DNA from: an uncultured delta proteobacterium
GTDB lineage: Bacteria; Desulfobacterota; Syntrophobacteria; BM002
NCBI GenBank assembly: GCA_963712115.1
Contig: CAVQGX010000001.1
Span: forward strand, 1-36,789
Length of the DNA stretch: 36,789 nucleotides
Direction: 5' to 3'
The translations under genes and the position numbers were made by a program. How positions within the stretch are numbered: position 1 is the stretch's first letter; every line of letters begins with the position of its first letter. Below, piece by piece: positions 8,228 to 33,107 of the stretch. The notes beneath the pieces are model-generated. The model saw nothing but the letters and a program-made list of their open reading frames with translations. It ran no database searches and had not been told where the DNA came from.

Positions 8228-9199
<972 letters not shown>

Positions 9200-9326
9200 A
9201 AAAAAGTTCTTGCGTTTCACCTTTGATATGCTAATCTGACACTGTCATATCAGGGTGAAACATTCGTTTCCACAACACTGGTCAGAAAAACATGGCGCAA
9301 TTCCCATCAACAGGGAGAGTTTAGTT

Positions 9327-10547: not shown

Positions 10548-10575
10548 CTGTCTTCTGAGAAGATCTGTCTATGAC

Positions 10576-10611
10576 AAGCCCTCGGTCTTTGGAGACTGGG
10601 GGCTTTTTTTT
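10576..10611 (+). terminator. Rho-independent terminator
   Basis: AAGCCCTCGGTCT-ttgg-AGACTGGGGGCTT followed by a T tract. Confidence 0.85.
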
Positions 10612-10860
10612 GCAGCAAGCAGCGGGCAGCCGGCAGCAAGCAGCTATGGATAAAAGAACATCAGATAAAGCTTTTTCTGCCAGCTGTCTGCTGTCAGCTG
10701 CTTGCTAACTCCTGACTCCTGGATTCTCTCTTTAGTTTTCCGTTGACTTCAATGGAGTGTGCAATTAGGTTGATGAGGTGGGGGATTTCGGATTGCGGAT
10801 TTGCGGATTTCGGATTTCGGATTGCGCCCGCCCGCCTCGCGGGCGGGGATTGCGGATTGA
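10612..10860. repeat. Heptamer repeat arms (GCAGCAA vs CTGCTGT) and a GGATTT/GGATTGC repeat with an embedded palindrome
   Basis: gcagcaagcagcgggcagc...ctgtctgctgtcagctgcttgct. ggatttcggattgcggatttgcgg tract interrupted by cccgcccgcctcgcgggcggg. Confidence 0.7.
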
Positions 10861-10899
10861 TTTTTTGGGTTTCTGTTCAACTGATGTAGGCAAGGATCA

Positions 10900-12138
10900 A
10901 TGGCAAAAAAGAAACAACTAAAAAAAGATAAAAAACGGCATGATCGGCTGGTGCTCAAGGCAGAAGAGGAGACGCAACTTCAGATGCTGGTGGATCGGGT
11001 GCTGGCCCTAGACCCAGAGGCGAATAGTTTCACCCAATTTGTGGAAAGCTTGAAGCCTTTAGTTGAGCAATCAGTTGCTTTTACAGTTGCCTTGGCCGAG
11101 GCTCTTGCTTCCACGGCCAATCCTGTGGCAGTCAAGGTAATACAGGCCCTCCAAGGGATTGAGGCGAAGAAGCCCGTAAGGAGGGCGCTAAAAACAGCTC
11201 TCTACCGTTTGGCCCGTCAGGGACTGGTCAAAGAGCAAGAGGAGGCAGAGGTTGAGCCTCGGGTTCTGGTGCCCCGGCCGGAGGATCGGCAGGCAGAGGC
11301 CTGGGCCAGTTGGCCGGAGAGTCAGGGCGAGCGCGGAATTATCCTCAAACTCCCAGATGCTGGCCGTGGTTACCTGATGGTAATTGGCGTACTCAACTCG
11401 GAAGGTGTCTTCCACGAATTCGAGGCAGTCCAGACCACTCGCAAAGGAGTTAGAGCCATCCTCGAGCGCATGACAGGAGGGGTTTCAGGAAGAATAATAG
11501 AGATCCCCCTAGAGCACTTCCGTTTCCTTTATGAAGAGACGGCGGACACTTACCAGCGGCAAAGCATGGAACTCCCTGCTGGCTACGATGTGATGCTCAA
11601 GCAGCTTGACTCTTTGGTGGAGAAACCTGCAGGTCCGCATATCTACAACCTTTTGAATGAAAAGGAAATCGGCGGAGATACCCTCCTCCTCCGTAGCTCG
11701 GACGGTCTACTTGAGGTGCAGCCATTTGTATCCTGGCGTCTACCTGAAGAATTGGTAAGTCCCTTTGCCGCTAAGATAAAGGAGCTCAGCCAGAGCCGGT
11801 TGGTAATCTCCCAGAGTGCGCAATTGGAGCGGATAGAGCAAATTTACCGTGAGGCTGCAACGGAAATCTTCACCGCAGAGAGAAGGCAGCGCTATGGTAG
11901 ACTCCTGGAAGAGGCGGCTCTGCTCCTTTACCTGGAGAGCCGGGAGCAGGAGGCGAAACGAGCCTTTGCTGTTGCCCTTGACCTAGAGAAAGAGTTAGGT
12001 GTTTTCACTGAAAACAATTTTATCCTGGGGTTGGTGAAGCGCTCAATTTCGGCTAAAGTCGGCTCTCTGCTGGAAAATATAGAGGGTGAGAGGCAAAGAG
12101 AAAAAACTACCGAATCAGGGTTGATTATTCCTATATAA
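10900..12138 (+). CDS. Hypothetical protein, 412 aa, largely helical
   Basis: Long ORF with RBS AAGGA, Lys-rich N-terminus and C-terminal SGLIIP. No catalytic motif recognised. Confidence 0.8.
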   Translation: MAKKKQLKKDKKRHDRLVLKAEEETQLQMLVDRVLALDPEANSFTQFVESLKPLVEQSVAFTVALAEALASTANPVAVKVIQALQGIEAKKPVRRALKTALYRLARQGLVKEQEEAEVEPRVLVPRPEDRQAEAWASWPESQGERGIILKLPDAGRGYLMVIGVLNSEGVFHEFEAVQTTRKGVRAILERMTGGVSGRIIEIPLEHFRFLYEETADTYQRQSMELPAGYDVMLKQLDSLVEKPAGPHIYNLLNEKEIGGDTLLLRSSDGLLEVQPFVSWRLPEELVSPFAAKIKELSQSRLVISQSAQLERIEQIYREAATEIFTAERRQRYGRLLEEAALLLYLESREQEAKRAFAVALDLEKELGVFTENNFILGLVKRSISAKVGSLLENIEGERQREKTTESGLIIPI

Positions 12139-13450: not shown

Positions 13451-14440
13451 ATGGGTATCTGGGTTTCCTTCTTTGCGGTTATAGCACTCGTCTTGATCCC
13501 CTTGGTGGGGGCGCAGGGAGCCGGCCAGTATCTATTCGGGATCGCGATCCCTTACGCGGCTGTACTGATTTTCGTCATTGGGTTTATCTACCGGGTGGTT
13601 CAATGGGGTAAGACCCCAGTACCCTTTAAGATTCCCACCACCGGCGGACAGATGAAGAGTCTTCCCTGGATCAAATGGAGTCCCCTTGACAATCCTGCCA
13701 CTACTGGCGGTGTCATTGGCAGAATGGCCCTCGAGGTGCTCGCCTTCCGCTCCCTTTTCAGGAACACGAGGGTGGAACTGAGGGAGGGACCCAAGGTCAG
13801 CTACGGCTCCAACAAGTGGCTGTGGGTGGCGGCACTGGCATTTCATTATGCCTTTCTCGTCGTCTTCATCAGACACTTCCGTCTTTTTATGGAGCCCGTG
13901 CCCGGTTTCGTCGGTCTCCTGGAGAGCGTCGATGGCTTTATGGAAGTGGGGTTGCCGCGGCTGATGATGAGCGGGGTAGTACTGTTGCTGGCCGCGCTCT
14001 ATCTGTTTCTGCGAAGAGTTGCCGTGCCGCAGCTCCGCTACATTTCCCTTGCCGCCGACTACTTCCCTCTCTTTCTTATCGTCGCCTTGGCTGGTTCCGG
14101 CATCCTCATGCGCTATTTCATCAGGGTTGATATCACCAGCGTCAAGGAGTTGGTCACAGGTTTGGTGAGCTTCCGCCCCACTATCCCGGAGGGAATAGGA
14201 GCTATCTTTTTTGTCCACCTTTTTCTCCTGTCGGTGTTGATCGCTTACTTCCCCTTCAGCAAACTCATGCATGCAGGTGGAGTTTTCCTAAGCCCAACTA
14301 GGAACATGCCCAATGACAACCGGGCGAATCGACACATTAATCCCTGGAACTATCCAGTCAAAGTTCACACTTACGACCAGTACGAAGATGAATTCAGGGA
14401 GAAGATGAAAGAAGTTGGACTCCCAGTTGAAAAGGAGTAG
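13451..14440 (+). CDS. dsrM: DsrM, di-heme b membrane subunit (NarI-like)
   Basis: FRSLFRNT, FHYAFLVVFIRH, VHL..YFPFSKLMHAGGVFLSPTRN, NPWNYPV. Confidence 0.96.
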   Translation: MGIWVSFFAVIALVLIPLVGAQGAGQYLFGIAIPYAAVLIFVIGFIYRVVQWGKTPVPFKIPTTGGQMKSLPWIKWSPLDNPATTGGVIGRMALEVLAFRSLFRNTRVELREGPKVSYGSNKWLWVAALAFHYAFLVVFIRHFRLFMEPVPGFVGLLESVDGFMEVGLPRLMMSGVVLLLAALYLFLRRVAVPQLRYISLAADYFPLFLIVALAGSGILMRYFIRVDITSVKELVTGLVSFRPTIPEGIGAIFFVHLFLLSVLIAYFPFSKLMHAGGVFLSPTRNMPNDNRANRHINPWNYPVKVHTYDQYEDEFREKMKEVGLPVEKE

Positions 14441-14442
14441 AG

Positions 14443-16203
14443 ATGGCAAAGGTTGCACCCCCAGAAGAACTCTCTCGAGTAGATTATACCCCCCCTAAAA
14501 AAGGTTGGATGGACACGCCTGCCGAAATAAGAGAAGGTAGGTGGTGCTATGGTTCGAAGCCCAAAGACCACGAGGTTGTGGGTCTCCCTAATCCGCGGTC
14601 TTGGTCGCCGGGCGACGAAGACTGGAAGCTTCCGGACAACTGGAAAGAGATATTTCTTGAAGGTATGAAGGAGCGGCTGGACAAGTTCCGCACTTTCCGG
14701 ATCTTCATGGATATCTGTGTAAGGTGCGGCGCCTGTGCAGACAAGTGCCACTTCTTCATTGGCTCGGGTGACCCCAAGAACATGCCTGTGCTCAGGGCAG
14801 AGCTTCTCAGGTCAGTTTATCGCGGGGAATTCACCAACGCCGGCAAGATCCTGGGGAAACTTGCCGGTGGCAGAAAACTCACCTACGATGTCGTCAAGGA
14901 GCTATTCTACTATTTCTTCCAATGTACCGAGTGCCGCCGCTGTTCCCTATTCTGCCCCTACGGCATTGACACGGCTGAAATAACCATAATCGGTCGGGAG
15001 TTGTTGAACCTTTTGGGGTGCAACATCGACTGGATCATGGGTCCCGTTGCCAACTGTTATCGCACAGGCAACCACCTGGGCATTCAACCCCACGCCTACC
15101 ACTCCATGCTGGAGTTTTTCTGTGAGGAGATCGAGGAGATAACAGGCATCTTGCCCGAGCCCAGTTTCAATAGGAAGGGAGCCGAGATCCTGTTCGTCAC
15201 CCCGTCAGGTGATGTCTTCGCCGATCCGGGTACCTTCACTGCCATGGGCTACCTCATGCTCTTCCACTATCTCGAGGGTCTAGGCCTGGACATCACCTGG
15301 AGCACTTACGCCTCAGAGGGCGGAAACTTCGGTTTCTTCACCTCCCACGAGATGATGAAGAGGCTCAACTCCAAGATGTATGCAGAGGCCAAAAGGCTTG
15401 GGGTGAAGTATATCATCGGCGGGGAATGCGGCCACATGTGGAGGGTGTGCAACCAGTACATGGACACCATGAACGGCCCGGCTGACTTCCTTGAGGTGCC
15501 CAAATCTCCCATCACCGGCACTGTGTTTGAGAGCGCCAAATCCCATAAAATGGTTCACATTTGTGAATTTACCGCGGACTTGATCAAGCACGGCAAATTG
15601 AACCTGGACCCAAGCCGTAATGACCAATACAAGGTGACCTTCCATGACTCCTGCAATACTGCCAGGGGCATGGGGTTCTTCGAAGAGCCACGGTATATCC
15701 TAAACAACATCTGTAATGATTTCCATGAAATGCCAATAAATACCATCAGGGAGCAGACCTTTTGCTGCGGTAGTGGATCCGGCTTGAACACAGATGAAAT
15801 CATGGATCTGAGGATGAGGGGGGCCTTACCCAGGGCAAATGCTCTGCAGTATGTCCACGACAAGCACGAGGTGAATTTGATGTCCTGCATCTGCGCCATT
15901 GATCGCGCAACCCTGCAAACCCTGGTTGACTATTGGATTCCCGAGGTGGAAATTAGTGGCATCCACGAGTTAATAGGCAATGCCCTCATTCTGGAGGGGG
16001 AGAAGAAGAGAACCATGAACCTCCGTGCCGAAGAATTCCCCTGGGTCGAAGAAGAGGAAGAAGAAGCTGAAGAGGAAGCTTTAGAAGTCAATTTAGAAGC
16101 AGTCGAAGAAACAGCCGAAGAATTAGCCGCAGAAGCAGCTGAAGAAGCAGCAGAGGAAGCTGCCGATGAGGCAGCGGAAGAAGAAGCGGAGGGTGAAAAA
16201 TAA
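14443..16203 (+). CDS. dsrK: DsrK, Fe-S/CCG catalytic subunit with an acidic C-terminal tail
   Basis: CVRCGACADKCH, CTECRRCSLFCP, GECGH, FHDSCN, CCGSG, CAID. Confidence 0.97.
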   Translation: MAKVAPPEELSRVDYTPPKKGWMDTPAEIREGRWCYGSKPKDHEVVGLPNPRSWSPGDEDWKLPDNWKEIFLEGMKERLDKFRTFRIFMDICVRCGACADKCHFFIGSGDPKNMPVLRAELLRSVYRGEFTNAGKILGKLAGGRKLTYDVVKELFYYFFQCTECRRCSLFCPYGIDTAEITIIGRELLNLLGCNIDWIMGPVANCYRTGNHLGIQPHAYHSMLEFFCEEIEEITGILPEPSFNRKGAEILFVTPSGDVFADPGTFTAMGYLMLFHYLEGLGLDITWSTYASEGGNFGFFTSHEMMKRLNSKMYAEAKRLGVKYIIGGECGHMWRVCNQYMDTMNGPADFLEVPKSPITGTVFESAKSHKMVHICEFTADLIKHGKLNLDPSRNDQYKVTFHDSCNTARGMGFFEEPRYILNNICNDFHEMPINTIREQTFCCGSGSGLNTDEIMDLRMRGALPRANALQYVHDKHEVNLMSCICAIDRATLQTLVDYWIPEVEISGIHELIGNALILEGEKKRTMNLRAEEFPWVEEEEEEAEEEALEVNLEAVEETAEELAAEAAEEAAEEAADEAAEEEAEGEK

Positions 16204-16586
16204 TGTATAACAAAGGAAAAATCATCACCGGGCTCGTTATCTTTGTTGTCTTTTTCACCTCACCCTTCCTGTACGGTTTGGTGAAATCCGGCCCGCCGCC
16301 TGAGCGTGAGCTTTCGCCCAAGGCGAAGGAGGCGAAGCTGTGTGTGGAAGCCAAAGAGTTCATGGTGGAATCACATATGCAAATGCTCAACGATTGGCGG
16401 GACCAGGCTATTCGCAACGGTCAACGAGTCTACGTTGCCACAGACGGGAAAGAGTATGTGGTGAGCTTGCAAAACACCTGCATGGATTGCCACAACAACA
16501 AGAGCAAGTTTTGCGATCAATGCCATAACTATGCCGGAGTCAGCCCTTACTGCTGGGAATGCCATATTGAGCCGAAGGAGAACTAG
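16203..16586 (+). CDS. dsrJ: DsrJ triheme cytochrome c
   Basis: N-terminal anchor, HMQMLNDWRD, CMDCH, CDQCH, CWECH. Confidence 0.96.
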   Translation: MYNKGKIITGLVIFVVFFTSPFLYGLVKSGPPPERELSPKAKEAKLCVEAKEFMVESHMQMLNDWRDQAIRNGQRVYVATDGKEYVVSLQNTCMDCHNNKSKFCDQCHNYAGVSPYCWECHIEPKEN

Positions 16587-17377
16587 TGATGGACAGGAGC
16601 AGAAGACGCTTCCTAAAGATACTCGGAATCTCCACCCTGGGTGTGGGAACGATTTCCTCGGTGGATCTGTTGGCCATGGTTGGTAAAGGCGAGCCTGTTT
16701 ACAACCGGACCCCAGATGCCTTGGTAGGAAAGAGATGGGCCCTGGTGGTGGATGTGAATAAGCTTGATGAGGAGACCACCCAGAAGGCCATAGAGGCCTG
16801 TCACCGGGTCCACAACGTTCCTGACTATGGGGACGAGGAAGAGATCAAATGGATCTGGACCGACAAGTATGAACACGTCTTTCCGGGGCAGGAGCACGCC
16901 TACCTCGCCGCAGAAATTGAAGAAAAGCCTTTTCTGGTGCTCTGCAACCATTGCGCCAATCCCCCTTGCTGCAGGGTCTGCCCCACCCAGGCCACCTGGC
17001 AGCGGGCAGACGGGATTGTGATGATGGATCAGCACCGCTGCATTGGTTGCCGCTATTGCATGGCCGGATGTCCTTTCGGGGCTCGAAGTTTCAACTGGAA
17101 AGATCCCAAGACTACTTACTGGAAGGAGCATGAGCCGCCAAATCGCACATATCCGGTACGGAGCAAAGGGGTGGTGGAAAAGTGCAACCTCTGCGCTGAA
17201 CGTCTGGCCGCGGGTCAAATTCCGGCGTGTGTCGAGGCAGTCAAGGACACAAAGGCAATAGTTTTTGGTGATTTGGAAGATCCCAACTCGGAAGTGCGGG
17301 AGTTGCTTCATGAGCACTTTACCATTCGGCGTAAACCAGAGCTTGGGACCAATCCCAACGTCTACTACATAGTGTGA
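16586..17377 (+). CDS. dsrO: DsrO periplasmic Fe-S subunit (start GTG16586 or ATG16589)
   Basis: Tat motif SRRRFLK, CNHCANPPCCRVCP, CIGCRYCMAGCP, KCNLC. Confidence 0.95.
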   Translation: MMDRSRRRFLKILGISTLGVGTISSVDLLAMVGKGEPVYNRTPDALVGKRWALVVDVNKLDEETTQKAIEACHRVHNVPDYGDEEEIKWIWTDKYEHVFPGQEHAYLAAEIEEKPFLVLCNHCANPPCCRVCPTQATWQRADGIVMMDQHRCIGCRYCMAGCPFGARSFNWKDPKTTYWKEHEPPNRTYPVRSKGVVEKCNLCAERLAAGQIPACVEAVKDTKAIVFGDLEDPNSEVRELLHEHFTIRRKPELGTNPNVYYIV

Positions 17378-17384
17378 GGTGGTT

Positions 17385-18542
17385 ATGCTTGAGACTGCTC
17401 TGAAAGGAAGCAAGAAATACTGGGTGTTAGTATTGGTTTTGTTCGGTCTTCACGGGATAGGCGCCACCGCCTTTATTTACCAGCTCACAAAAGGCTTGAC
17501 TGTAACCGGCATGAGCAGGGACGTTTCCTGGGGAATCTACATTGCCCAGTTCACCTTCCTGGTCGGCGTGGCAGCCTCGGCAGTCATGGTTGTCCTACCC
17601 TACTACCTGCATAACGTCAAGGAATATGCCAAGGTCACTATTTTGGGTGAGTTTCTTGCGGTGGCTTGCGTCTCCATGTGTTTGATGTTTATCCTGGTGG
17701 ACCTGGGCAAGCCCATGCGGGCGTTGAATGTTATCCTGCATCCAACGCCCAATTCCGTTTTGTTCTGGGACATGGTTGTCTTGAACGGCTACCTATTTCT
17801 GAACATTGTTATTGGGTGGATAGTATTGAGTGCCGAGCGCAAGGAGGTGCCCCCGCCCAAGTGGATCAAGCCTGTCATCTACGTTTCAATACCCTGGGCT
17901 GTTAGCATCCACACGGTCACTGCTTTTCTCTATGCAGGCTTGCCGGGAAGGCATTTCTGGCTCACCGCCATTATGGCCGCCCGCTTTTTGGCTTCAGCCT
18001 TTGCCTCCGGACCTTCGCTTCTTATCCTGCTGTGTCTTATTGTCAGGAAGTTCACCAATTTCGATCCCGGCAAAAAGGCCATCCAAACACTATCCAAGAC
18101 CGTGTTGTATGCCATGATCATCAGCATATTTTTCGTAATTCTGGAGCTCTTCACCGCCTTCTACAGCCAAATACCCGGGCACACGCACGCTTTTGTCTAT
18201 CAGTTTGTAGGCTTGCACGGTCACGGTGCGCTGGTTCCCTGGACCTGGGCTTTTGCCATCCTGGCAGTGATCGCCACGCTCATGTTGCTCTGCCCGCCAA
18301 TCCGAGAGAACGAGAAGACCCTGGCAATCGCCTGTGTGATGGTTTTCGTCTCCCTGTGGATCGAAAAAGGGGTTACCCTGGTCATTACCGGGTTCATCCC
18401 TAACCCCCTGGAGAAGATAACAGAATACGTACCCACCATTCCCGAACTAGCGATCACTGTTGGAGTGTGGGCTACCGGCTTCCTGGTTCTCACAATCCTT
18501 TACAAGGTCGCGGTTTCGGTCAAGGAAGAGTTGGGCACCTAG
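17385..18542 (+). CDS. dsrP: DsrP, NrfD/PsrC-family membrane subunit
   Basis: TGMSRDVSWG, WAVSIHTVTAFL, ARFLASAFASGP. Polytopic membrane protein. Confidence 0.96.
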   Translation: MLETALKGSKKYWVLVLVLFGLHGIGATAFIYQLTKGLTVTGMSRDVSWGIYIAQFTFLVGVAASAVMVVLPYYLHNVKEYAKVTILGEFLAVACVSMCLMFILVDLGKPMRALNVILHPTPNSVLFWDMVVLNGYLFLNIVIGWIVLSAERKEVPPPKWIKPVIYVSIPWAVSIHTVTAFLYAGLPGRHFWLTAIMAARFLASAFASGPSLLILLCLIVRKFTNFDPGKKAIQTLSKTVLYAMIISIFFVILELFTAFYSQIPGHTHAFVYQFVGLHGHGALVPWTWAFAILAVIATLMLLCPPIRENEKTLAIACVMVFVSLWIEKGVTLVITGFIPNPLEKITEYVPTIPELAITVGVWATGFLVLTILYKVAVSVKEELGT

Positions 18543-22277: not shown

Positions 22278-22736
22278 TTACTTCTCCTTCGACTTTGTAT
22301 GGCACTTGATACAGGTGGTAGGGATCTTACCGTATTTTGCCTGGTCTTTCTTCTTCATCTCTTTATGGCACCCCTGGCAATTGTCGTGAAAGGCGATTTT
22401 CAGGTTGAGCTTTTGCTTGTCCGCGGAGAGTTTCTTTTCGCCCTTAATCGTAGGCTCATTATGACACTCCATGCATTTCTTAACCTGGTCGCCTTCTTTC
22501 CAGATGTTCTTGCCGTCCTTATAATCGTGATGGCACTGGTCGCACTTGATCTTGTATTCTTCTTGGTGCTTCTTGTGATGAAAGTTCACCGGGCCCTTGG
22601 TGTGCTCTGACCAGAGCTTGGCTTGTATGTCGATCACTTCGGGCGCCTTTTGCTCGGCCGCACCACTCAGGCCCAAAAGAGCCACACTGAACATCAACCC
22701 CACAACCGCTAGAACTGTAAGGAAACGTCTACCCAT
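22278..22736 (-). CDS. Tetraheme cytochrome c3 (class III)
   Basis: Signal peptide, VNFHHKKH, CDQCHH, CMECH, AFHDNCQGCH, CIKCH. Confidence 0.93.
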   Translation of the reverse strand: MGRRFLTVLAVVGLMFSVALLGLSGAAEQKAPEVIDIQAKLWSEHTKGPVNFHHKKHQEEYKIKCDQCHHDYKDGKNIWKEGDQVKKCMECHNEPTIKGEKKLSADKQKLNLKIAFHDNCQGCHKEMKKKDQAKYGKIPTTCIKCHTKSKEK

Positions 22737-23042: not shown

Positions 23043-23885
23043 TCATTGCAAAAGGAATTCCGACAAATGCACGAATCTGCGTAATGCCGCAAATATGCAC
23101 ATGCTATGCGCTATGCGCTTTGCCCTCTGCGGGGGCTCCTCTTCTTCCAAATCCAGGGGTTTTCGGCCAAAAACTTTGGCAATCCAAATACTTAACTCGT
23201 AGAGAAGCAAGAGAGGTCCGGCCATCATGATCTGGGTGACTACATCGGGGGGTGTCAATATGGCGGCAAGCACGAAGATAATAAGGATGGCGTATTTCTG
23301 CTTGCTTCTGAGCATTTCCGCTGTCACCAGACCAAGCCTTGCAAGGAAAAAAGCAAAGAGGGGTAATTCGAAAATGAAGCCGAAGGCGAAGAGTAGTTTG
23401 CTGGCGAACTTCAGATACTCGCGGATACTGGGCAAGGCCCTGATACTGTCGCTGGCAAAACCGATAAAGAACTTGAAACCAAATGGAAACACCACGAAGT
23501 AGCCAAAGAGAGCTCCGCCGAGGAAAAAAACCGTGGAGAATAGCACGATGGGTAAAAGGGCTCTCCGCTCCCGATTGTAAAGGCCCGGGGCCAAAAAGCG
23601 CCAGAACTGGTAAATGATTACCGGAGAGGCCAATCCGATACCAGTGAGCAGCGCCACTTTCAGGTAGGTGATAAAAGCCTCTGGAAGGGCAGTGAAAATC
23701 AACCCCTCTCCCGGCGGCATTACCTTGATTAGGGGCCGCATTAGAATTTCGAATATCTGCTTGGCGAAGAAATAGGAGATGACAAAACCGATTCCAACGG
23801 CTACAAAACAGATTATTAGTCGACGGCGCAGTTCTTCCAGGTGCTCGGTGAAGGGCATTTTGGAATCGGTTTCATTTGTCGCCAT
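23043..23885 (-). CDS. tatC: Twin-arginine translocase subunit TatC
   Basis: [49 protein letters not shown]. Confidence 0.96.
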
Positions 23886-24219
23886 GGGGAGGCTTCTCCT
23901 CGGCTAGCTCAACATCTTCCTTGTTTGCTTGGTCGGAATCCCTGCTGGCGGTTTCATCCTCACCGGTATCCAGTTCTTCCCCCGGATCTGGAGGAATAGT
24001 TGCGTCGATCGCTGGGTCCTGAATTTCATCGAAGCTCTTCTTCAACTCGGAGAAGTCGGTATTCGTTTCCAGGCTTTCCTTGAGTTCGTTTGTGGCCTTC
24101 TTGAATTCGGCGATGCCTCGGCCCAGGGCTCGGGCCAACTCAGGCAATTTTTTGGGCCCCACGACAATGAGGGCTATGGCCAGAACGAGGAGAAGTTCTG
24201 GCATGCCAATTCCGAACAT
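23872..24219 (-). CDS. TatA/TatB family subunit
   Basis: [33 protein letters not shown]. Confidence 0.92.
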
Positions 24220-25470: not shown

Positions 25471-26412
25471 ATGGAAAAAGAAAAGGACTTTTACCGAAGG
25501 CTGTCGGAAAGTGGGGTCTCACGGCGAGACTTCATGAAGTTTTGTACCGCCCTGACAGCGACTATGGGTCTCAGCGCCACCTGGGTGCCCAAGGTAGCTG
25601 AAGTCTTTGCCGCACCCAAGCAGAGACCGCCAGTCGTCTGGCTCCACTTTGCCGAGTGCACCGGGTGTTCTGAGGCTACCTTACGGACCATGTACCCGTG
25701 GATAGATACACTCGTTCTGGAGATTATATCCATGGAGTATCACGAAACGGTCATGGCCGCTGCCGGTCACCAGGCGGAAGATGTCTTGCGTGCCGCTGTC
25801 AAGAAGTACAATGGCAAATTCATTTGTGTGGTGGAGGGTGCCGTGGCAACCAAGTATAATGGAGCCTATGGCAAGATTGGCGGTCGCACCTTCCTGGAAA
25901 TTGCTAACGACGTTTGCAAGAAGGCCGCTGCCACCATCGCTATTGGGGCCTGCGCCACTTACGGTGGTGTCCAAGCGGCTGCTCCCAACCCAGGTGGTTA
26001 CAAGGGAGTTGGTGAGGCTATCGGCATCAAGACAGTCAACATCGCTGGCTGTCCACCTAATCCCATAAACTTTGTCGGTACCGTAGTAAACTACCTCCTT
26101 CTGGGTAAACTCCCGGAACTGGACAGCTTTGGCCGTCCTCTCTTTGCTTACGGAAAAACGGTTCATGATCAATGTCCAAGAAGGGGACACTTTGAAAATG
26201 GCGAGTTCGTCACAGAATTCGGCTCCGCAGAAGCCAAAATGGGTTACTGCTTGTACGAAATGGGATGCAAGGGTCCAGATACCTTCAATAATTGTCCCAC
26301 TGCCAAGTTCAACGATGGCACCAGCTGGCCGGTTGAGGCGGGCCATCCTTGCATCGGGTGCAGCGAGCCGGATTTCTGGGACAAAATGAGCCCATTTTTC
26401 AAGAGTTCATAG
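25471..26412 (+). CDS. Periplasmic group-1 (probably 1b) [NiFe] hydrogenase small subunit
   Basis: Tat signal [46 protein letters not shown]. No C-terminal TM helix. Confidence 0.96.
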
Positions 26413-26464
26413 AAATAACGTATGAATCGAATGCTGGATTCCAAAGACAGAGAGGAGATTACAT

Positions 26465-28102
26465 ATGGCTAGTAAAATCACGATCGATCCGATCACCAGA
26501 ATAGAGGGCCACCTGCGGATCGAAGTGGAGGTGGCCGGCGGCAAGGTTGTCAACGCCTGGAGCTCTGGTCAGATGTTTCGGGGTATCGAGATCATTCTTC
26601 AAGGGCGTGATCCCCGGGATGCACCGCTCTTCACCCAGCGTTCCTGCGGGGTCTGAACTTACACCCATTACCTGTCCTCGGCGAGGGCAGTTGAAAGTGC
26701 TGTTGGCGTAAAGATCCCCGATAATGCTCGCATTATCAGAAATCTTCTTATGGGAGCCCAGTTTCAGCATGACCATATCGTCCATTTTTATCATCTCCAT
26801 GCCCTGGACTGGGTTGATGTGGTCAATGCCCTAAAGGCAGACCCCAAGAAGACAGCAGCTTTATCAGACAATGTCAGCAATGCCCCGTGGGGTGGCGCAC
26901 CTTACTTCAAACAGGTAGCGCAGAGGCTCCAGACCTTCGTAGATAGTGGTCAATTAGGTCCTTTCACCAATGGCTACTGGGGACATTCTGCCTACAAACT
27001 GCCGCCTGAAGCTAACCTGATGGCCGCTTCCCATTACATCGAAGCGCTTCGCCTTCAGGCCAAAGCAGCCAGGATGCACGCCATATTCGGCGCTAAAAAT
27101 CCCCATCTCCAGAGCCTGGCAATAGGCGGGGTGACCTGCGTCAAGGATCTGACCCCCGACAGGATTGCAGAGTTCAAGTTCCTGTGGAGGGAGACCCAGG
27201 ATTTCATTGAGAACGTTTACATCCCCGATCTCCTTGCGGTTGCCAGTTTTTATAAGGACTGGGGAGCCATTGGCGGGACCTCCAACTTCCATGCATGGGG
27301 CGAATTTCCCTTGAGCGATAAAGAGCCGGAAAGCCTCCTAATGCCCAGAGGGGTGATAATTAAGCGGAACCTCCAAGGGGTGCAAATGGCTCAGCAGCAA
27401 CAGGTCACTGAGCATGTGGCCCGCTCCTGGTATGAAGGTAATAAGGATAGGCATCCATTCCAGGGAGAAACCAAGCCGCAGCATGGTGATTACAACCCAA
27501 AAGGCAAATACTCCTGGGTCAAAGCGCCTAGGTATGACGGCGAGCCATGCGAAGTGGGTCCCCTGGCTCGGGTTCTCGTGGCCTATGCCAAAGGAGACAA
27601 GGCCACTCAGACTGTGGTGAATAAGACTCTGGCGGACCTGGGTATCCCGGTCACCGCTTTATTCTCCACTCTCGGCAGGACGGCTGCCCGAGGCCTGGAG
27701 ACTGTCATCATCGGCCAGGCAATGGAAGGTTGGATCAATGAACTGGTGGGTAATCTGAAGAATGGCAATGATAAGACCTATACCCCTTGGAAGATGAAAG
27801 ACGGCATGGGATACGGCCTCAATGACGTTCCCAGGGGTAGTCTGGGTCACTGGGTCCAGATTGAAAAAGGGAAGATCAAGAACTACCAGTACGTGGTTCC
27901 CTCAACTTGGAATCTGGGACCCCGTGATGCTAAGGGGAAAATGGGTCCGGTGGAGGAGGCTTTGATTGGCACGCCTGTCGCCGATCCGAAACGGCCTCTG
28001 GAAGTACTGAGGACCGTCCATAGCTTCGATCCTTGTATTGCCTGCGGGGTGCATGTAATCGATCCCGACTCCAACCAGGTCTATAAAGTCAGGGTAACAT
28101 AA
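26465..28102 (+). CDS. Group-1 hydrogenase large subunit, 545 aa, with UGA (Sec64) in the N-terminal CxxU motif
   Basis: [10 protein letters not shown]...QRSCGV-(TGA)-TYTHYLSS continues in frame into 26750..28102. Also VPRG and VVPSTWN. C-terminal DPCIACGVH plus a cleavable tail. SECIS-like hairpin downstream. Confidence 0.88.
26672..26690 (+). promoter_or_regulatory. Bacterial SECIS-like hairpin
   Basis: CTGTCCTC-[GGC]-GAGGGCAG, an 8-bp stem with one G-U pair. First loop G is at +24 after the UGA. Confidence 0.72.
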
Positions 28103-28161: not shown

Positions 28162-28182
28162 GTGATGGCATAGGGCATCGAG

Positions 28183-28316
28183 TCCATGTATTGCCTGTGG
28201 GGTGCATGTAATCGATCCGGACTCCAACCAGGTCTACAAGGTCAGGGTAACATAAGCAGGCCAGATTCACAGTTATACCCCCCAGCTGCCAGATTATGCA
28301 GCTGGGGATTTTTTTT
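28183..28316 (+). repeat. Direct duplicate of the large-subunit 3' end and terminator (28030-28161)
   Basis: Offset 153 bp. Encodes identical [23 protein letters not shown] with 5 synonymous changes. Confidence 0.92.
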
Positions 28317-28604
28317 GAAAGGCTCAAGGCACACGGCGCAAGGCACAAAGGAAGTGCAAGACTGGCGAGACGAGCAGAAAAGATGAGAGAGTCGGGAAAA
28401 GCAAGAAAGGCAAAAAAGTCAATCAGACGCTTTTAACGACTTTAACGGTTTCAACGATTTGAACGGCTTGAACGATTTGAGCCACGGACAACCGACCACA
28501 GACACAGCGCAATCTGCGAGCTGAATTGCATCTGTACAGGTAGAGAAAATTTGTTAAATTCGTTCAAATTGGTACACGGGATACTCATCACAACTTACTC
28601 TAAT

Positions 28605-28714: not shown

Positions 28715-31700
28715 ATGACAAATTCAAAAGAGATAAGTTTATCCTTTACCGGAATACTTCTGAGTATTGTCCGGCGGCGCGTGCAGGTCTTGCTGGCCAT
28801 TGCGTTAGTCACTCTTTTTTTTGGCTGGCAGGTGCCGAAGCTCCACATTAAGACCTCCATCTACGACCTTGTAATCGAGGACCTCCCCGAGACAGCCCGC
28901 TACAATGAATTCAAAGAAGTGTTCGGCTCCGACGAGATCATCCGCGTGGTGGTTAAGGCCGAAAACATTTTCGATCCGGCAACCTTTCGCAAGATTGAAG
29001 AACTGGTGTCCACCGCAACGGAGATGGAAGGGGTGAGGAGGGTCATTAGCCTCCCCGGAATTAAAAAGGACGTAGACCCAGGCGATACGTGGAGTCTGGA
29101 TAGGTTTGCCGACATGGTGACTCCCGTTGCCATATTCAGGAAAAATCTCATTTCCGAGGATCACAAGGCTAGTGTTCTCACCCTTGTTCTGGAGGACCAG
29201 GCTGATAGGGACAAGGTGATCCAAAGGGTAAGAGAGATGATAGCCGGGGCGAGCAAAGACCTTTCTCTCTATCAGATCGGTATGCCCTTGGTTTCTGAGG
29301 CCTTGGCCAATTTTACTAAGAAGGATTTTTTCAGCCTTCCTCCAATCACCTTTCTGATCATTGCAGTCATTCTATTTTTTCTGTTCAGAAATCTTGGCTT
29401 GCCTGGCGTACTGCCATTCAGCTGTGTGGCGCTGGCACTAGTCTGGACATTCGGCCTCATGGCCTTGACCAAGACACCTCTTTCCATGCTCACCATGATA
29501 GTCCCGGTTTTTCTCATTGCGGTTGGCACAGCCTACTGCCTCCACATTGGTTCCGAGTATCTCACTTCAGCCCAAGAGACAGAGTCTCGAACCGAGGCGA
29601 CAGTTTCCACTTTTTCCCTGGTGTCCTTTCCCACGGCCCTCGCCGTGCTTACCACAGCTATCGGCCTCGGATCTCTCTTGGTCAACCGAATTGTTGCAAT
29701 CCGCGAGTTCGCCATCTTCTCCTGCTTTGGAATGTTCAGTCTCCTGGTCATCGTCCTGACTTTTTTCCCTGCGGCTCTGAGCATCTTTCCCTTGCCCAAG
29801 AAAAAGGGTGATGAGACGAATATCACGCCGCACTTCTTCGATCGTTTTCTGGACTGGGTAGTCAACCTGGACCTGCACAAGCAAAAAGTCACCCTGCCGA
29901 TTCTAGGGGCTCTAGTGCTGTTTTGCATTATAGGGATTTTGCGCATTCGGGTGGAGACCAGCCCCGTAGAATATTTCAAGAGAGACACTGAGGTCAGCCG
30001 CCATTTCCATGACATATACCGGGATTTGTCTGGAAGTTTTCCGGTAAATGTGGTCATGGCAAGTGAGGAAGAGGACTATTTCGAGGACTCCGAGCATCTC
30101 GCAGAGATCGGGACTCTGCAGCAATTTCTGGAGACGCTTCCCTTTGTAGATAAGGCCGTATCTTTCGCCGAATACATGAAGCTGGTCAACTACGCCATGA
30201 ACCAGTTCGATCCTGAATTCTACACTCTTCCCCGAAGAGGGCTTTGAAGTGAGGATGTTGATGAACAATTACAGGATCATGCTGGGCGATGACATGTATT
30301 CGCGCTTTATGAATCCTGAGTTAAACAAGGCAAACATTTTGCTTTTTACTCACCTATCAAGTTCGCGGGACTTTCTCAAAACCAGGGACGATATCCTTGC
30401 TCACGTGCAAGCGAATTTCTCCAAAGACCTGAAGTGGGATGTCACCGGCCTTGGCATGGTGATTTCGGCCAGCAGCCATCTCCTTACCAAAGGTCAGGTA
30501 AAGAGCCTGTCTATTACCGTGGTCCTGGTGTTCAGCATTATGTTCATGCTCTTTCTCTCGAGCAAGGTTGGTCTCATTGCCATCGTCCCCAATCTTTTTC
30601 CCATTGTCGTTGTCTTCGGGGTCATGGGATGGCTTGGTATAGAACTTTCAATGGTTACCAGTCTTATAGCTAGCATCGCCATTGGTCTGGCCGTAGACGA
30701 CACCATCCACTATCTGGTCCGGTATAACCGGGAGTTCAAAAAGAGTCTGGACGACAAACTGGCTCTCAGGCAGACGATCAAGCAAGTTGGAAGACCTATA
30801 GTTTTTACCACTCTGACCATTGGGGTTGGTTTCTCCATCCTCACCTTGTCGAGCTTCAAACCCACGGCCATATTTGGCCTCTTGATGGTGATCACCATGT
30901 TTTCGGCGCTGGTGGGAGATCTGATTATCCTTCCTTCTCTTATGCTCCATGTGGAGCTGGTAACCCTGTGGGATCTCTTGCGGCTAAAGATCGGCAGGGA
31001 CCCGCATCTGGGCATTCCGATTTTAGGTGGCCTTACCCGTACGCAGGCACACTATGTCTTAATGGCAGGGGCCCTGAGGGAATTCCGGGCTGAAGAGGTA
31101 CTGTTTCGCAAAGGCGATCCCAGCGATTTCATGTACGCGGTGCTCTCCGGGGAGATGGATGTGGTGGACCCAGTTATGGTAGACGGTCAACCAGATGAAT
31201 CCGGCACGGCTAGATTCATAACCCGTTTGAAAGCCGGCGACCTGTTGGGTGAGATGGGTTTTATTCGTTCCGTTCCCCGCTCCGCCACTGTCGTAGGAAC
31301 GGAACCTGGGGAGCTTCTTCAAATCAACTGGCGCATGATTAAAAGGCTGCAATGGTTATACCCCCCAACTGCCCACAAGTTTTTCTATAATCTGATAACC
31401 ATACTTTCCGATCGTCTTGAGAGATCCACCGACCGCCTCACCGAGATAAGCCGGATTGATTATCTTACCGGGTTAATAAACAAAAGAGGGTTTGTAGAGA
31501 TACTAGGAGGTGAAGTTCACAGAGCAAAACGGTACGAGTCGAAACTTTCACTATGTTTAATGCGCATGGACTTCCATACAACCAACCCGGGATTGAACCA
31601 CGACGACAACGATCGGATGCTCAAACTCCTGGCTGGAATTCTTTCAGAGGGTGTCCGCAGGAGTGACACCCTGGGCAGGGTAGATACCCACATGTTTGGC

Positions 31701-31943
31701 CTAATTATTCCCCATGCCTCGGCGTCAGAGGCTCAGCAGATCAGTGAGAGGTTGTGGGGGTCTCTGCAAGAAGAGGCCCGCCAAGATGGGGAAAACAGCG
31801 TCAGGGTTGCCCTTGGTCTAGTCGAGTTTCAAGCTGAAGCTGACGAAACAGAGACTGACTTTCTTGGCAGGGCCACTGAAGAGCTGTTGAAAGCCATGGA
31901 GGCCGATCAGGTTCGTGTGTTTCCGATACCGGAGGCTCAATAG
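28715..31943 (+). pseudogene. MMPL/RND exporter fused to a cNMP-binding domain and a degenerate GGDEF domain, split by a +1 frameshift near 30230-30247
   Basis: Two MMPL repeats (GLAVDDTIH), LFRKGD..GEMG..PRSATV, DYLTGLINKRGF. Removing one C from CCCC at 30230-33 gives YTLPEEGFEVRMLMN and a 1075-aa ORF. Confidence 0.75.
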
Positions 31944-32121: not shown

Positions 32122-32652
32122 ATGGAATCCAAACAAATAATGATCCTCGGTGTGGGAAACCTCCTCTTCACTGATGAAGGAGTGGGGATACGGGTGGCTG
32201 AAGCCCTGCAAGACCGCTACGAGTTTCCGCAGAACGTAAGAGTAGTGGACGGCGGGACCCTGGGGCTAAATCTCCTGGGAGTTATTTCTGAGGCTGATCA
32301 CCTCATTGTGGTTGACGCAGTGCGGCAAGGCGGTGAGCCTGGCTCTCTTTACCGGTTGGCAGGAGAGGAAATTCCCAAGCGCATCCGGGCGAAGAACTCT
32401 CTGCACCAGGTGGAGTTTCTGGAAGCCCTGACCTGTTGTCAGGCCTTGGACAAGGTCCCGGAGACGGTGATAGTGGGAGTTGAACCCGAAGATATTACTA
32501 CTATGAGCATAGAGCTCACCGCAACTGTAAGTGCCAGAGTAGACGACCTGGTGGAAGCGGTTCTCAAGGAATTAACCAATCTGGGGGGAAGTTACTGCAA
32601 CAGAAAAGAAGGCGATAGTTGCGCTGATTCAGAATTTGTCAGAAGAATCTGA
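32122..32652 (+). CDS. Hydrogenase maturation protease (HyaD/HybD family)
   Basis: LGVGNLLFTDEGVG, VDGGTLG, VVDAV, SLHQ, GVEP. Confidence 0.95.
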   Translation: MESKQIMILGVGNLLFTDEGVGIRVAEALQDRYEFPQNVRVVDGGTLGLNLLGVISEADHLIVVDAVRQGGEPGSLYRLAGEEIPKRIRAKNSLHQVEFLEALTCCQALDKVPETVIVGVEPEDITTMSIELTATVSARVDDLVEAVLKELTNLGGSYCNRKEGDSCADSEFVRRI

Positions 32653-32819: not shown

Positions 32820-33107
32820 ATGTGCTTAGCGATACCGGCGAAGATTGTGAATATTGAAGATAACATGGGCACGGTGGACATGGCAGGGATTCAGAAAAAG
32901 GTGAGCCTGATCCTCCTGGAAGACGCCCAAGTAGGGGATTACGTCATCGTTCATGCCGGCTTTGGCATACACAAGATCGATGAACAAGCGGCCATGGAAT
33001 CATTGCGAATCCTCAGAGAGGCGGCATTCTTGCTGGATGTTGAGGATCCAGCCGGACCAGACGAAGTAACCATTACGCGTTTTGGGAGCGAAGAGGCAGA
33101 TTCGTAA
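32820..33107 (+). CDS. hypC: Hydrogenase chaperone HypC
   Basis: MCLAIP..., VGDYVIVHAGF. Confidence 0.96.
   Translation: MCLAIPAKIVNIEDNMGTVDMAGIQKKVSLILLEDAQVGDYVIVHAGFGIHKIDEQAAMESLRILREAAFLLDVEDPAGPDEVTITRFGSEEADS

Follow-up and report, generated by a model that had tools for sequence, protein, structure and literature searches.

In [NiFe] hydrogenases of solved structure, the second cysteine of the N-terminal CxxC motif bridges nickel and iron. To our knowledge, selenium is a terminal Ni ligand in every characterised [NiFeSe] hydrogenase, and the effect of a selenium bridging Ni and Fe is known solely from one engineered, poorly active variant. According to the available parts of PMC8020662, the C79U variant of E. 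coli Hyd-1 (Evans et al. 2021) retains 13% of native activity, the highest of four Sec variants. Being less active than the native enzyme and not more O2-tolerant, it gives no evident advantage of a bridging Sec.

Natural sequences of the N-terminal CxxU form are in print. The form was noted in 2007 in 'FrhA' of Olavius symbionts (PMC1976440, available in part), and Baltazar et al. 2011, as cited in the available parts of PMC13582414, described CXXU in three sequences, two of Group 1 and one of Group 3, with the Sec as a predicted Ni-Fe bridge. Such cases are termed 'purported examples' in PMC8020662, and the hydrogenase forms treated in the accessible portions of PMC2702500, PMC13188914 and PMC4730141 are C-terminal or UxxC only. 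An earlier note on the DNA analysed here knew of no characterised natural example. This stands, in that the available parts of the literature neither characterise nor count a natural Group 1 CxxU enzyme (alignments in supplements, e.g. those of PMC8020662 and PMC13582414, may bear on the point); as sequences, however, such forms had been reported in 2007 and 2011.

The window, a stretch of 36,789 nucleotides from an uncultured delta proteobacterium, carries a [NiFe] hydrogenase whose closest solved relatives, for both subunits, are the group 1b HynAB enzymes (D. vulgaris Miyazaki F 1h2a, D. gigas 1frv/2frv, D. fructosovorans 1frf). Motifs, C-terminal extension, Tat signal and medial-cluster proline are common to both, and a c3-type cytochrome gene lies near the window's hydrogenase; unlike HynAB, the window's gene has UGA in place of Cys at codon 64, followed by an LSSARA segment fixed by an RNA hairpin. 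With the group 1a Hys enzymes (Desulfomicrobium baculatum 1cc1, D. vulgaris Hildenborough 2wpn/5jsu) it shares a periplasmic location, occurrence in sulfate reducers, predicted selenium and predicted UGA recoding through a hairpin inside the gene. However, the Sec of Hys replaces the first C-terminal Cys and is a terminal Ni ligand, whereas the predicted Sec of the window is N-terminal and Cys524 occupies the Hys position.

As far as the available descriptions go, the N-terminal CXXU Group 1 sequences of Baltazar et al. and the Olavius 'FrhA' have the same motif type and a predicted bridging Sec. Baltazar's Group 1 sequences, which may belong to the present clade, number two, and the present form is seen in more than 100 species genomes. 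Hyd-1 C79U, also a Group 1 enzyme, has Sec at the equivalent second N-terminal Cys, where Sec is predicted in the window's gene, but was made artificially, by UAG programming, from a group 1d enzyme that tolerates O2, and is no product of natural co-evolution (PMC8020662, in part). The Group 4 CXXU, UXXC and UXXU [NiFeSe] forms identified in silico, as described in the available parts of PMC13582414 (2026), resemble the window's enzyme in their N-terminal Sec positions, gene calls cut at the UGA, SECIS elements with an apical-loop G, and Cys-type sisters. They are membrane-bound, energy-converting and rare (47 sequences, about 0.2%), whereas the window's enzyme would be a soluble periplasmic member of Group 1, common in its order.

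The large-subunit gene and its neighbours

The features of the window referred to in the text are the following.

9255-10547, plus strand: second UGA gene, HdrD/GlpC-like Fe-S oxidoreductase; U252 is TGA 10008-10010, with a hairpin downstream
22278-22736, minus strand: class III (c3-type) multihaem cytochrome (PF02085, E = 6e-15)
23043-24219, minus strand: tatC (23043-23885) and tatA/B (23872-24219), PF00902 and PF02416; route for the folded enzyme
25471-26412, plus strand: [NiFe] hydrogenase small subunit (PF01058, PF14720), twin-arginine signal SRRDFMKF
26465-28102, plus strand: [NiFe] hydrogenase large-subunit gene, 545 codons, its sole interruption an in-frame UGA at codon 64
26654-26656, plus strand: UGA codon 64 (predicted Sec, predicted Ni-Fe bridging ligand), in place of the second Cys in the N-terminal motif RxCGxCxxxH, context RSCGV-U-TYTH
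26672-26690, plus strand: SECIS-like hairpin, 8-bp stem CTGTCCTC (26672-26679) / GAGGGCAG (26683-26690), loop GGC (26680-26682)
28028-28054, plus strand: C-terminal Ni-binding motif DPCIACGVH (Cys524, Cys527, His530)
28055-28099, plus strand: C-terminal extension of 15 residues before TAA, presumed target of the maturation protease
28175-28318, plus strand: tandem duplicate of the last ~70 nt of the large-subunit gene, the downstream inverted repeat and a T-run (BLAST, 92.4% identity over 144 nt)
32122-32652, plus strand: HycI/HynD-type maturation protease (PF01750, E = 7e-38)
32820-33107, plus strand: hypC/hupF maturation chaperone (PF01455, E = 2e-27)

Apart from its one TGA, the large-subunit gene is free of stops and frameshifts and has all motifs intact. 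Its full-length match to PF00374 (E = 2e-220) runs from position 1 to 508 of the 508-position profile and takes in residues 39-530, and it is the sole PF00374 match in the window's assembly. Codon 64 aligns with residue 84 of chain 1h2a_L. Codon 524, the canonical [NiFeSe] position (DPUxxC of group 1a Hys), is TGT and specifies Cys, not Sec. Mature solved chains end at the position of residue 530; from these chain ends and from what is known of the family, the protease presumably removes the 15-residue extension. The small subunit, endopeptidase and Hyp chaperone that accompany the large subunit are all intact. These observations bear out the earlier note, which had read a single TGA at 26654 (RSCGV-U-TYTH) in a 545-codon gene ending in a DPCIAC motif, a GGC-loop hairpin with its loop G at +24 (+23 in the other UGA gene), and intact small-subunit, protease, hypC and tat genes; both loop positions were recovered, and the accessory genes have the Pfam matches given above.

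The cytochrome c3 gene lies 2.7 kb upstream of the hydrogenase genes on the opposite strand. Its product is likely the periplasmic electron acceptor of the hydrogenase, a partnership that we infer. Prototypical group 1b uptake hydrogenases combine a Tat-exported small subunit with a c3-type cytochrome partner, and their operons hold neither a membrane-anchor gene nor a cytochrome b gene. Genes 3' of the large subunit are of MMPL/GGDEF types, and dsrMKJOP is also within the window. Among 85 loci that gave a hit, the tandem duplicate was seen at one, the window's own; a 29-codon ORF from ATG 28166 was noted within it.

Read with table 11, positions 26465-28102 yield two ORFs of 63 and 450 aa, and the 63-aa fragment is stored in databases as a separate protein. 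Among the best 120 short database proteins, 101 end directly before the UGA column. Gene callers do break the gene; the earlier note had expected standard annotation to discard it as a pseudogene.

The hairpin and the selenocysteine machinery

The accepted distance window is 16-37 nt (bSECISearch). In the large-subunit gene the first loop G lies 24 nt past the A of the UGA, and the hairpin loop of the gene at 9255-10547 begins at +23. A different candidate for the other UGA gene, 10087-12138, was rejected, as its read-through shows many stops, 7 TGA among them.

When the 57 nt that follow the UGA were folded as a single sequence, the hairpin formed, but at a z of -0.08 it scored no better than shuffles. 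Such a fold being uninformative alone, comparative tests were used instead. Across 119 distinct versions of the hairpin, 99.6% of cells are paired, loop residues G27 and G28 are invariant, and compensatory changes occur at two stem pairs (1 and 4); RNAalifold recovers the same helix independently. The GGC loop of the window is a minority version (15 of the 119), the remainder having GGU. Codons 71-75 each use one codon throughout 86 unique complete Sec-type genes; synonymous variation is zero at 5 of 336 usable codon columns, and these are solely the hairpin codons 71-75. In the 86 Sec-type genes the hairpin region folds at a median of -11.3 kcal/mol, compared with -4.5 for 11 genes of the Cys-type. 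The hairpin is missing from most Cys-type relatives, and one of them (L187) specifies identical residues (LSSVRA) by different codons, which break the stem. Judged from the codons used at 71-75, L187, the fold energies, the compensatory changes and the RNAalifold result, the hairpin is under selection as an RNA. A Cys-type sequence nested in the Sec clade (L212) retains the hairpin, which by itself is therefore no proof of recoding.

The window's genome carries selA (618 bits), selB (395 bits) and selD (382 bits), all above the NCBIfam cut-offs, and selD has an in-frame TGA of its own. In the window's assembly, the best RF01852 score is 45.8 bits, the matches being tRNA-Ser, Trp or Leu, and ARAGORN gave no tRNA-Sec at default or lowered thresholds; tRNA-Asp and tRNA-Phe are likewise absent from this assembly. 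Genus-wide, 13 of 18 genomes each have a single RF01852 match to tRNA-Sec, at about 75 bits, and no other score exceeds 47 bits; the copy in genome G006 is called tRNA-SeC, anticodon tca, by ARAGORN. Contig C31 ends 14 nt after losing synteny with the region upstream of a relative's selC, and contig C54 starts with 14 nt identical to the 3' end of a relative's selC. These contig ends suggest that selC of the window's genome was likely lost to an assembly gap. The earlier note had looked to selABCD for the Sec machinery; that holds for selA, selB and selD, whereas selC was not found in the window's assembly.

Distribution and ancestry of the UGA

Within the window's class, an ortholog with TGA occurs in 12 other genomes, namely 11 of 17 of the genus and one of another family, and all 13 TGA-bearing orthologs of the class have it at the same column. 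In the other 6 of these 17 genomes no such hydrogenase was found. The exact pattern matches at least 119 stretches in GTDB species genomes, and 116 of the 119 listed are the large-subunit gene. In an even sample of the order holding genome G122 (301 genomes), 163 have an ortholog; by hand count, 82 of the 150 rows listed show one TGA, and 26 of 30 loci fetched have TGA at the codon-64 column. Cys-type orthologs have TGC or TGT there, and close relatives of the large-subunit gene include UxxU forms with two TGAs. Altogether, UGA and hairpin are conserved jointly in more than 100 species-level genomes.

Between the window and its relatives, dN/dS over codons 81-545 has a median of 0.068 and a maximum of 0.109 (22 pairs with finite dS); the median upstream of the TGA is 0.065. 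By this measure, selection downstream of the TGA is strongly purifying. The earlier note had weighed two outcomes: homologs with TGA at the same column, a conserved hairpin and purifying selection, or a TGA private to this genome with a hairpin equally present in Cys homologs. The former holds: TGA and hairpin recur in more than 100 species genomes, omega is ~0.07 over the 22 pairs, and most Cys-types are without the hairpin. Contigs from metatranscriptome libraries of two studies span the UGA (X10, 26400-28087; X11, 26458-26801), though contigs from RNA libraries are no proof of transcription, nor of read-through. Contigs from four public runs cover 26654-26656 with no difference there among the rows listed; all four runs being contigs, their depth, coverage gaps and lack of listed differences prove little.

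The large subunit scores 718 bits against 1h2a_L and 682-684 against the D. gigas chains, which we take to be group 1b, compared with 521-555 against Hyd-1 types (presumably 1d), about 500-508 against Hyd-2 (1c) and 326-344 against [NiFeSe] enzymes (1a). Solved Cys-type group 1b structures share ~62% identity with it. The best solved relative of the small subunit is 1h2a_S (412 bits), [NiFeSe] small subunits reaching 183-207 bits. Group 1a small subunits have Cys for Pro near the medial cluster and contain three [4Fe-4S] clusters; the small subunit of the window keeps W-P-V in this region, aligned with D. gigas W238-P239-V240. These affinities make it a group 1b-like enzyme, of the type of HynAB from Desulfovibrio vulgaris Miyazaki, and not a group 1a [NiFeSe] hydrogenase.

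In a FastTree phylogeny, which took in 4 of about 68 Cys-type rows from the sampled order, a single clade, with support 0.997, unites 111 Sec-type sequences with 4 of the Cys-type. The sister group consists of 22 Cys-type sequences from the window's own class, and C-terminal-Sec enzymes lie outside. Strict monophyly of the Sec-type had been read from a first tree whose Sec rows were chosen by TGA pattern and whose Cys rows came solely from the window's class; it was withdrawn when an unselected sample put the 4 Cys-type rows inside the clade. Cys-type sequences are nested there at three places, so that Sec is dispensable. Sec-type and sister Cys-type sequences differ at 8 columns, at which the nested Cys-types mostly hold the clade's residue; on this pattern the 8 columns are lineage markers, with no clear active-site co-substitution. 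Since the large subunit is closer to group 1b structures and has Cys524 at the canonical Sec position, the predicted Sec arose independently of the Hys/Vhu/Fru type. Both the group 1b-like character (718 bits, versus 344 for 1a) and the separate evolution of the Sec site had been proposed before, and both proposals stand.

Proposed mechanism and alternative readings

The locus very probably encodes a periplasmic group 1b-type uptake [NiFe] hydrogenase with a bridging Sec64, a predicted site with one origin within Cys-type 1b enzymes, separate from 1a, and with occasional reversion to Cys. That codon 64 is read as Sec and as no other residue, and that the selenium takes the mu-Se geometry, we infer from homology; partners and physiology are likewise putative. 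SelB with Sec-tRNA(Sec) would bind the 8-bp GGY-loop hairpin, which starts 16 nt past the UGA, and selenocysteine would be inserted. The Hyp machinery would load NiFe(CN)2CO, with Cys61 and Cys524 as terminal ligands and Sec64 and Cys527 as bridging ones. Cleavage after His530 by the HycI-type protease and export of the dimer by Tat, through the RR signal of the small subunit, would follow. The c3-type cytochrome may then take up the electrons from H2, which would go on to serve sulfate reduction (dsrMKJOP).

A tRNA of the tRNA(ReC)/SelC* type could instead recode the UGA as cysteine, using the same hairpin and SelB, and the product would be an ordinary all-Cys [NiFe] enzyme. Such tRNAs are reported, in the available parts of PMC13582414, from some Desulfobacterota with Sec-type Group 4 hydrogenases, especially UXXU, and UxxU forms exist among the close relatives described here. 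The single ~75-bit RF01852 match per genome (13 of 18 in the genus), with nothing else above 47 bits, speaks against this, as do the tca anticodon of the G006 tRNA-SeC and the presence of selA and of selD, itself a UGA gene. On balance, cysteine recoding is improbable.

A nonsense mutation in a decaying gene, leaving truncated products only, would agree with the table 11 split, with the 63-aa piece held as a separate protein in databases, and with the accessory nature of a hydrogenase not found in 6 of 17 genus genomes. Yet the same TGA in more than 100 species-level genomes, an omega of ~0.07 downstream that equals the upstream value, the lack of any further stop or frameshift, the intact motifs and maturation genes, and the position of the gene as the only PF00374 member of its assembly make a pseudogene very hard to credit. 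In Methanococcus VhuA/VhuU, the large subunit consists of two polypeptides, and by analogy residues 1-63 might assemble here with the downstream piece. The split ORFs fit, with nothing more specific in favour; the first ATG past the UGA is codon 96 (26750), and a piece begun there would be without His68 and the bridging ligand, while what is conserved after the UGA is a hairpin with a GG loop instead of a ribosome-binding site and start codon. Two assembling polypeptides are just as hard to credit. The window's genome is a 70-contig assembly with an estimated contamination of 5.99%, where a TGA might be an error for TGC or TGT, but the same TGA recurs in independent assemblies and the contigs of the four public runs show no difference at 26654-26656 among the rows listed; the chance of an error is close to nil.

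Selenocysteine at a bridging position, the reading preferred here, extends to a broader one towards which we lean by a little: that CxxU marks a single-origin natural Ni-(mu-Se)-Fe lineage, the group 1b enzyme that prevails in the periplasm of Desulfobacterales and their allies in sediments of seas and estuaries, present in metatranscriptome libraries, systematically split by gene callers and, in some members, of double-Sec UGVU form. CxxU sequences are already in print; the commonness of the form and the existence of UxxU double-TGA relatives look under-reported. The gene and its many relatives offer a natural, evidently selected and predicted bridging-Se site in a textbook group 1b scaffold; with solved structures of that scaffold at ~62% identity, these natural versions are good material on what Se contributes at each ligand position. 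Hydrogenase surveys that start from called proteins will miss or mis-size the enzyme in Desulfobacterales. If the broader reading is true, H2 uptake in abundant sulfate reducers would proceed by active-site chemistry nobody has measured and would be selenium-dependent. With just one PF00374 gene in the window's assembly, H2 oxidation in these sediment sulfate reducers may hinge on selenium supply.

The large-subunit gene and its hydrogenase class

The hydrogenase large-subunit gene occupies positions 26465-28102 of the forward strand as a single 545-codon frame, interrupted only by a TGA at 26654-26656, within RSCGV-U-TYTH. Rechecking the sequence showed that the coordinates, motif and hairpin described in the earlier note, including the +24 geometry (+23 in the second UGA gene), were all correct. 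The product covers the whole PF00374 profile (E = 2e-220) and ends in DPCIACGVH followed by a 15-residue extension. The main features accompanying it are:

25471-26412: small subunit with Tat signal, directly upstream of the large subunit
32122-32652: HycI-type protease, downstream of the large subunit
32820-33107: hypC, downstream of the large subunit
upstream of the hydrogenase genes, other strand: tatA, tatC and a class III cytochrome c
13451-18542: dsrMKJOP-like row (NarI-like, Fer4/CCG, small ORF, Fer4_11 and NrfD-like proteins)
9255-10547: HdrD/GlpC-like Fe-S oxidoreductase, second selenoprotein candidate (U252, TGA 10008-10010, LLPE-U-GHAYY)

The dsrMKJOP-like row marks the host as a dissimilatory reducer of sulfate or sulfite. 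The structural genes of the hydrogenase are separated from the protease and hypC by 28715-31943, which encodes two MMPL/RND-like membrane proteins; the second of these also carries fused cNMP-binding and GGDEF domains. Such an insertion is unusual in a hyn cluster. In addition, about 70 nt from the 3′ end of the large-subunit gene, together with a terminator-like inverted repeat and T-run, are duplicated in tandem at 28166-28318 (92.4% over 144 nt). The duplicate holds a 29-codon ORF (ATG at 28166) ending like the true C-terminus (PCIACGVH...); by eye, the shared coding part has four differences, all synonymous. Of 85 related loci, only the window's has it, which points to either a private duplication or an error of assembly.

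Comparison with all PDB chains bore out the proposal of a group 1b-like periplasmic enzyme. The best match of the large subunit is D. vulgaris Miyazaki 1h2a_L (718 bits), followed by the group 1b enzymes of D. gigas (682-684 bits) and D. fructosovorans (677 bits), the Hyd-1 types (521-555 bits) and Hyd-2 (about 500-508 bits), as against 326-344 bits for [NiFeSe] enzymes. Likewise, the small subunit scores 412 bits to 1h2a_S versus 183-207 bits to [NiFeSe] small subunits. Judged by sequence, the large subunit is thus closest to group 1b periplasmic enzymes. The small subunit retains W-P-V, aligned with D. gigas W238-P239-V240, a mark of a [3Fe-4S] medial cluster as opposed to the [4Fe-4S] cluster of [NiFeSe] enzymes. 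Residue 64 (UGA) falls, in a gap-free alignment, on residue 84 of 1h2a_L. The sole TGA of this frame occupies the N-terminal bridging-Cys position, as claimed. For CXXU forms, PMC13582414 gives the second Cys position of the N-terminal motif as a bridge between Ni and Fe. Unlike this gene, three loci (L048, L049 and L050) in genomes of the same family or class (G019, G020 and G028) encode canonical [NiFeSe] enzymes with C-terminal Sec (DPU[LA]xC; 40-42% identity), so both kinds of selenium hydrogenase exist in the class.

Conservation of the UGA, of the frame and of the hairpin

Matches (E <= 1e-50) were found in 27 of 41 genomes around the window's own. The ortholog (72-94% identity) carries one TGA in 12 genomes besides the window's, 11 of the 17 other genus members and one of another family, and the TGA lies at the identical column in 13/13 TGA-bearing genes, the window's included. 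Class-wide, an ortholog (E <= 1e-150) is present in 98 of 122 genomes; in families f5 and f6, 83 matching genomes are free of any stop (60-72% identity). A same-family genome of another genus yielded by tblastn just residues 220-545 (L047, 86% identity); this locus, lacking the N-terminal part with the UGA column, may be a truncated remnant.

Scanning one genome per GTDB species with an exact pattern, which itself selects for TGA, returned at least 119 stretches, 116 of which are this gene (...QR[STA]CGV-U-TY[TIV]H.LSS[VA]R), in records titled nearly always Desulfobacterales, Desulfobacteraceae, Desulfosarcinaceae or "delta proteobacterium" MAGs. Stretches L057, L115 and L151 were rejected as chance matches. 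Because of this selection, we added a sample of 301 genomes drawn evenly from the order containing G122 (the genome of locus L077). An ortholog is present in 163 of them; a hand count of the 150 rows listed (18 more exist) gave one TGA in 82 and none in 68, and the 30 loci fetched have TGA (26) or TGC (4) at this column. Genes with TGA at this codon (Sec-type, as opposed to Cys-type) thus make up roughly half of the orthologs in the sampled order.

Nei-Gojobori comparison of the window's gene with other Sec-type genes gave a median dN/dS of 0.068 (maximum 0.109; 22 pairs with finite dS) for codons 81-545 and of 0.065 (60 pairs) for codons 1-63. In 93 complete Sec-type genes, the one other stop is an extra TGA at codon 172 of L124. 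Hence two of the comparative signs sought in the earlier note, TGA at the same column in homologs and purifying selection downstream, are both observed. As to its expectation that standard annotation would discard the gene, translation table 11 cuts the frame into ORFs of 63 and 450 aa, and the 63-aa piece matches 1267 clusters of 34-111 aa in a collection of 5.8 billion proteins. Among the best 120 clusters, 101 end exactly before the UGA column (99 of these in CG[VL]), indicating that gene callers routinely split this gene.

The hairpin past the UGA behaves as a selected RNA element. Codons 71-75 (S S V/A R A) use one codon each in 86 unique complete Sec-type genes (TCC 84/84, TCG 86/86, GTG 77/77, AGG 86/86, GCA 85/85), with 3-5 codons in use at flanking four-fold sites. 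Among the 336 columns whose residue is conserved and degenerate, these alone show zero synonymous variation, and the five-codon window with the least such variation begins at codon 71. The same codons vary freely in 11 Cys-type genes. The Cys-type L187 spells the same LSSVRA as CTC TCT TCG GTG CGG GCG, destroying the stem; as a caveat, the hairpin persists in one nested Cys-type gene, L212. Median fold energy of the 26-nt region is -11.3 kcal/mol in the 86 Sec-type genes versus -4.5 in the 11 Cys-type genes. In 119 distinct 54-nt versions, the 8-bp helix, also returned by RNAalifold unaided, is paired in 99.6% of cells; loop residues G27 and G28 and six pairs are invariant, and two pairs change on both sides (pair 1, C-G / U-G / U-A; pair 4, U-G / G-U). 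The element varies so little that covariation is sparse.

Selenocysteine machinery and public sequencing runs

Regarding selABCD, to which the earlier note had looked for confirmation, the window's assembly contains selA (618 bits), selB (395 bits) and selD (382 bits); a search of the whole assembly did not find tRNA-Sec. The assembly has 43 tRNAs, with tRNA-Asp and tRNA-Phe missing too. A tRNA-Sec match of about 75 bits occurs in 13 of 18 genomes of the genus, and ARAGORN calls the copy in G006 tRNA-SeC, anticodon tca. The region upstream of the G006 selC matches contig C31 of the window's assembly until 14 nt from the contig end (358437), and contig C54 opens with the last 14 nt of that selC. 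This synteny suggests that the window genome's selC most likely falls in an assembly gap. The selD gene (G000:C22:26789-27709) has one in-frame TGA and is probably a selenoprotein gene itself. The second candidate in the window (9255-10547) has a hairpin with a GGUU loop starting 23 nt past its UGA and adjoins a malate/lactate dehydrogenase gene (8264-9199).

Searched by sampled words, the gene is matched for a third to a half of them in 20 public runs, which come from 17 studies (metagenomes of marine sediment, estuary, marsh and sediment; 6 recorded as RNA). Four runs were compared with the gene, all as contigs. In RNA library X10 a 1756-nt contig spans 26400-28087 with 60 differences, and in X11, a metatranscriptome from another study, a 344-nt contig spans 26458-26801. 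None of the 40 differences listed for the four runs (141 more exist) falls at 26654-26656. This shows that the gene occurs in metatranscriptome libraries of two studies, and is proof of neither transcription nor read-through.

Origin, double-TGA relatives and known examples

A FastTree phylogeny (LG+gamma) was computed for large subunits of three kinds, 111 Sec-type, 28 Cys-type and 3 C-terminal-Sec, with the last as root. It unites all Sec-type and four Cys-type sequences in one clade (support 0.997), within which the Cys-types branch at three points (L200; L187; L210 with L212). Sister to this clade are the 22 Cys-type genes from the window's class; the window's gene itself is nested well within a subclade made up mostly of Desulfobacterales MAGs. 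On the simplest reading, Cys changed to Sec once in group 1b, some lineages later reverted to Cys, and a Sec-type gene was transferred into the window's lineage, the direction of the switches being one we infer. Since the tree took in 4 of about 68 Cys-type rows from the sampled order, its count of switches is a minimum.

Among the best 120 short database proteins, 17 (P0062, P0066, P0077 and 14 others) stop short by three more codons, after ...FTQRT. Scanning metagenome contigs with a pattern yielded 15 stretches; three are chance matches and 12 read FTQRT-U-GV-U-TM[TV]HYLSSVRAVE:

L220-L224, L226, L228, L229 and L231-L234: double-TGA contigs, close relatives of the window's large subunit

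All 12 have TGA at both N-terminal ligand (Cys) codons and the same hairpin, the frame staying open to DPC[IV]AC[AG]VH wherever the contig allows. The excerpts of PMC13582414 (2026) describe CXXU, UXXC and UXXU forms in Group 4, the one group for which they mention UXXU.

PMC8020662 (2021) mentions "purported examples" of bridging substitution and reports the full set of four Sec variants of E. coli Hyd-1, among which C79U was the most active (13% of native activity), with O2 tolerance not raised. Our search of main texts found no characterisation of a natural Group 1 CxxU enzyme and no count of its frequency. The gene is not the first of its kind; others like it had already been noted in print. 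The biological reading, a predicted Sec at the N-terminal bridging ligand, has strong comparative evidence in its favour; Sec insertion and mu-Se geometry at codon 64 are likewise predicted. What goes beyond the literature found is the scale, the clean RNA-level signature, a single apparent origin with reversions, and the double-TGA relatives.
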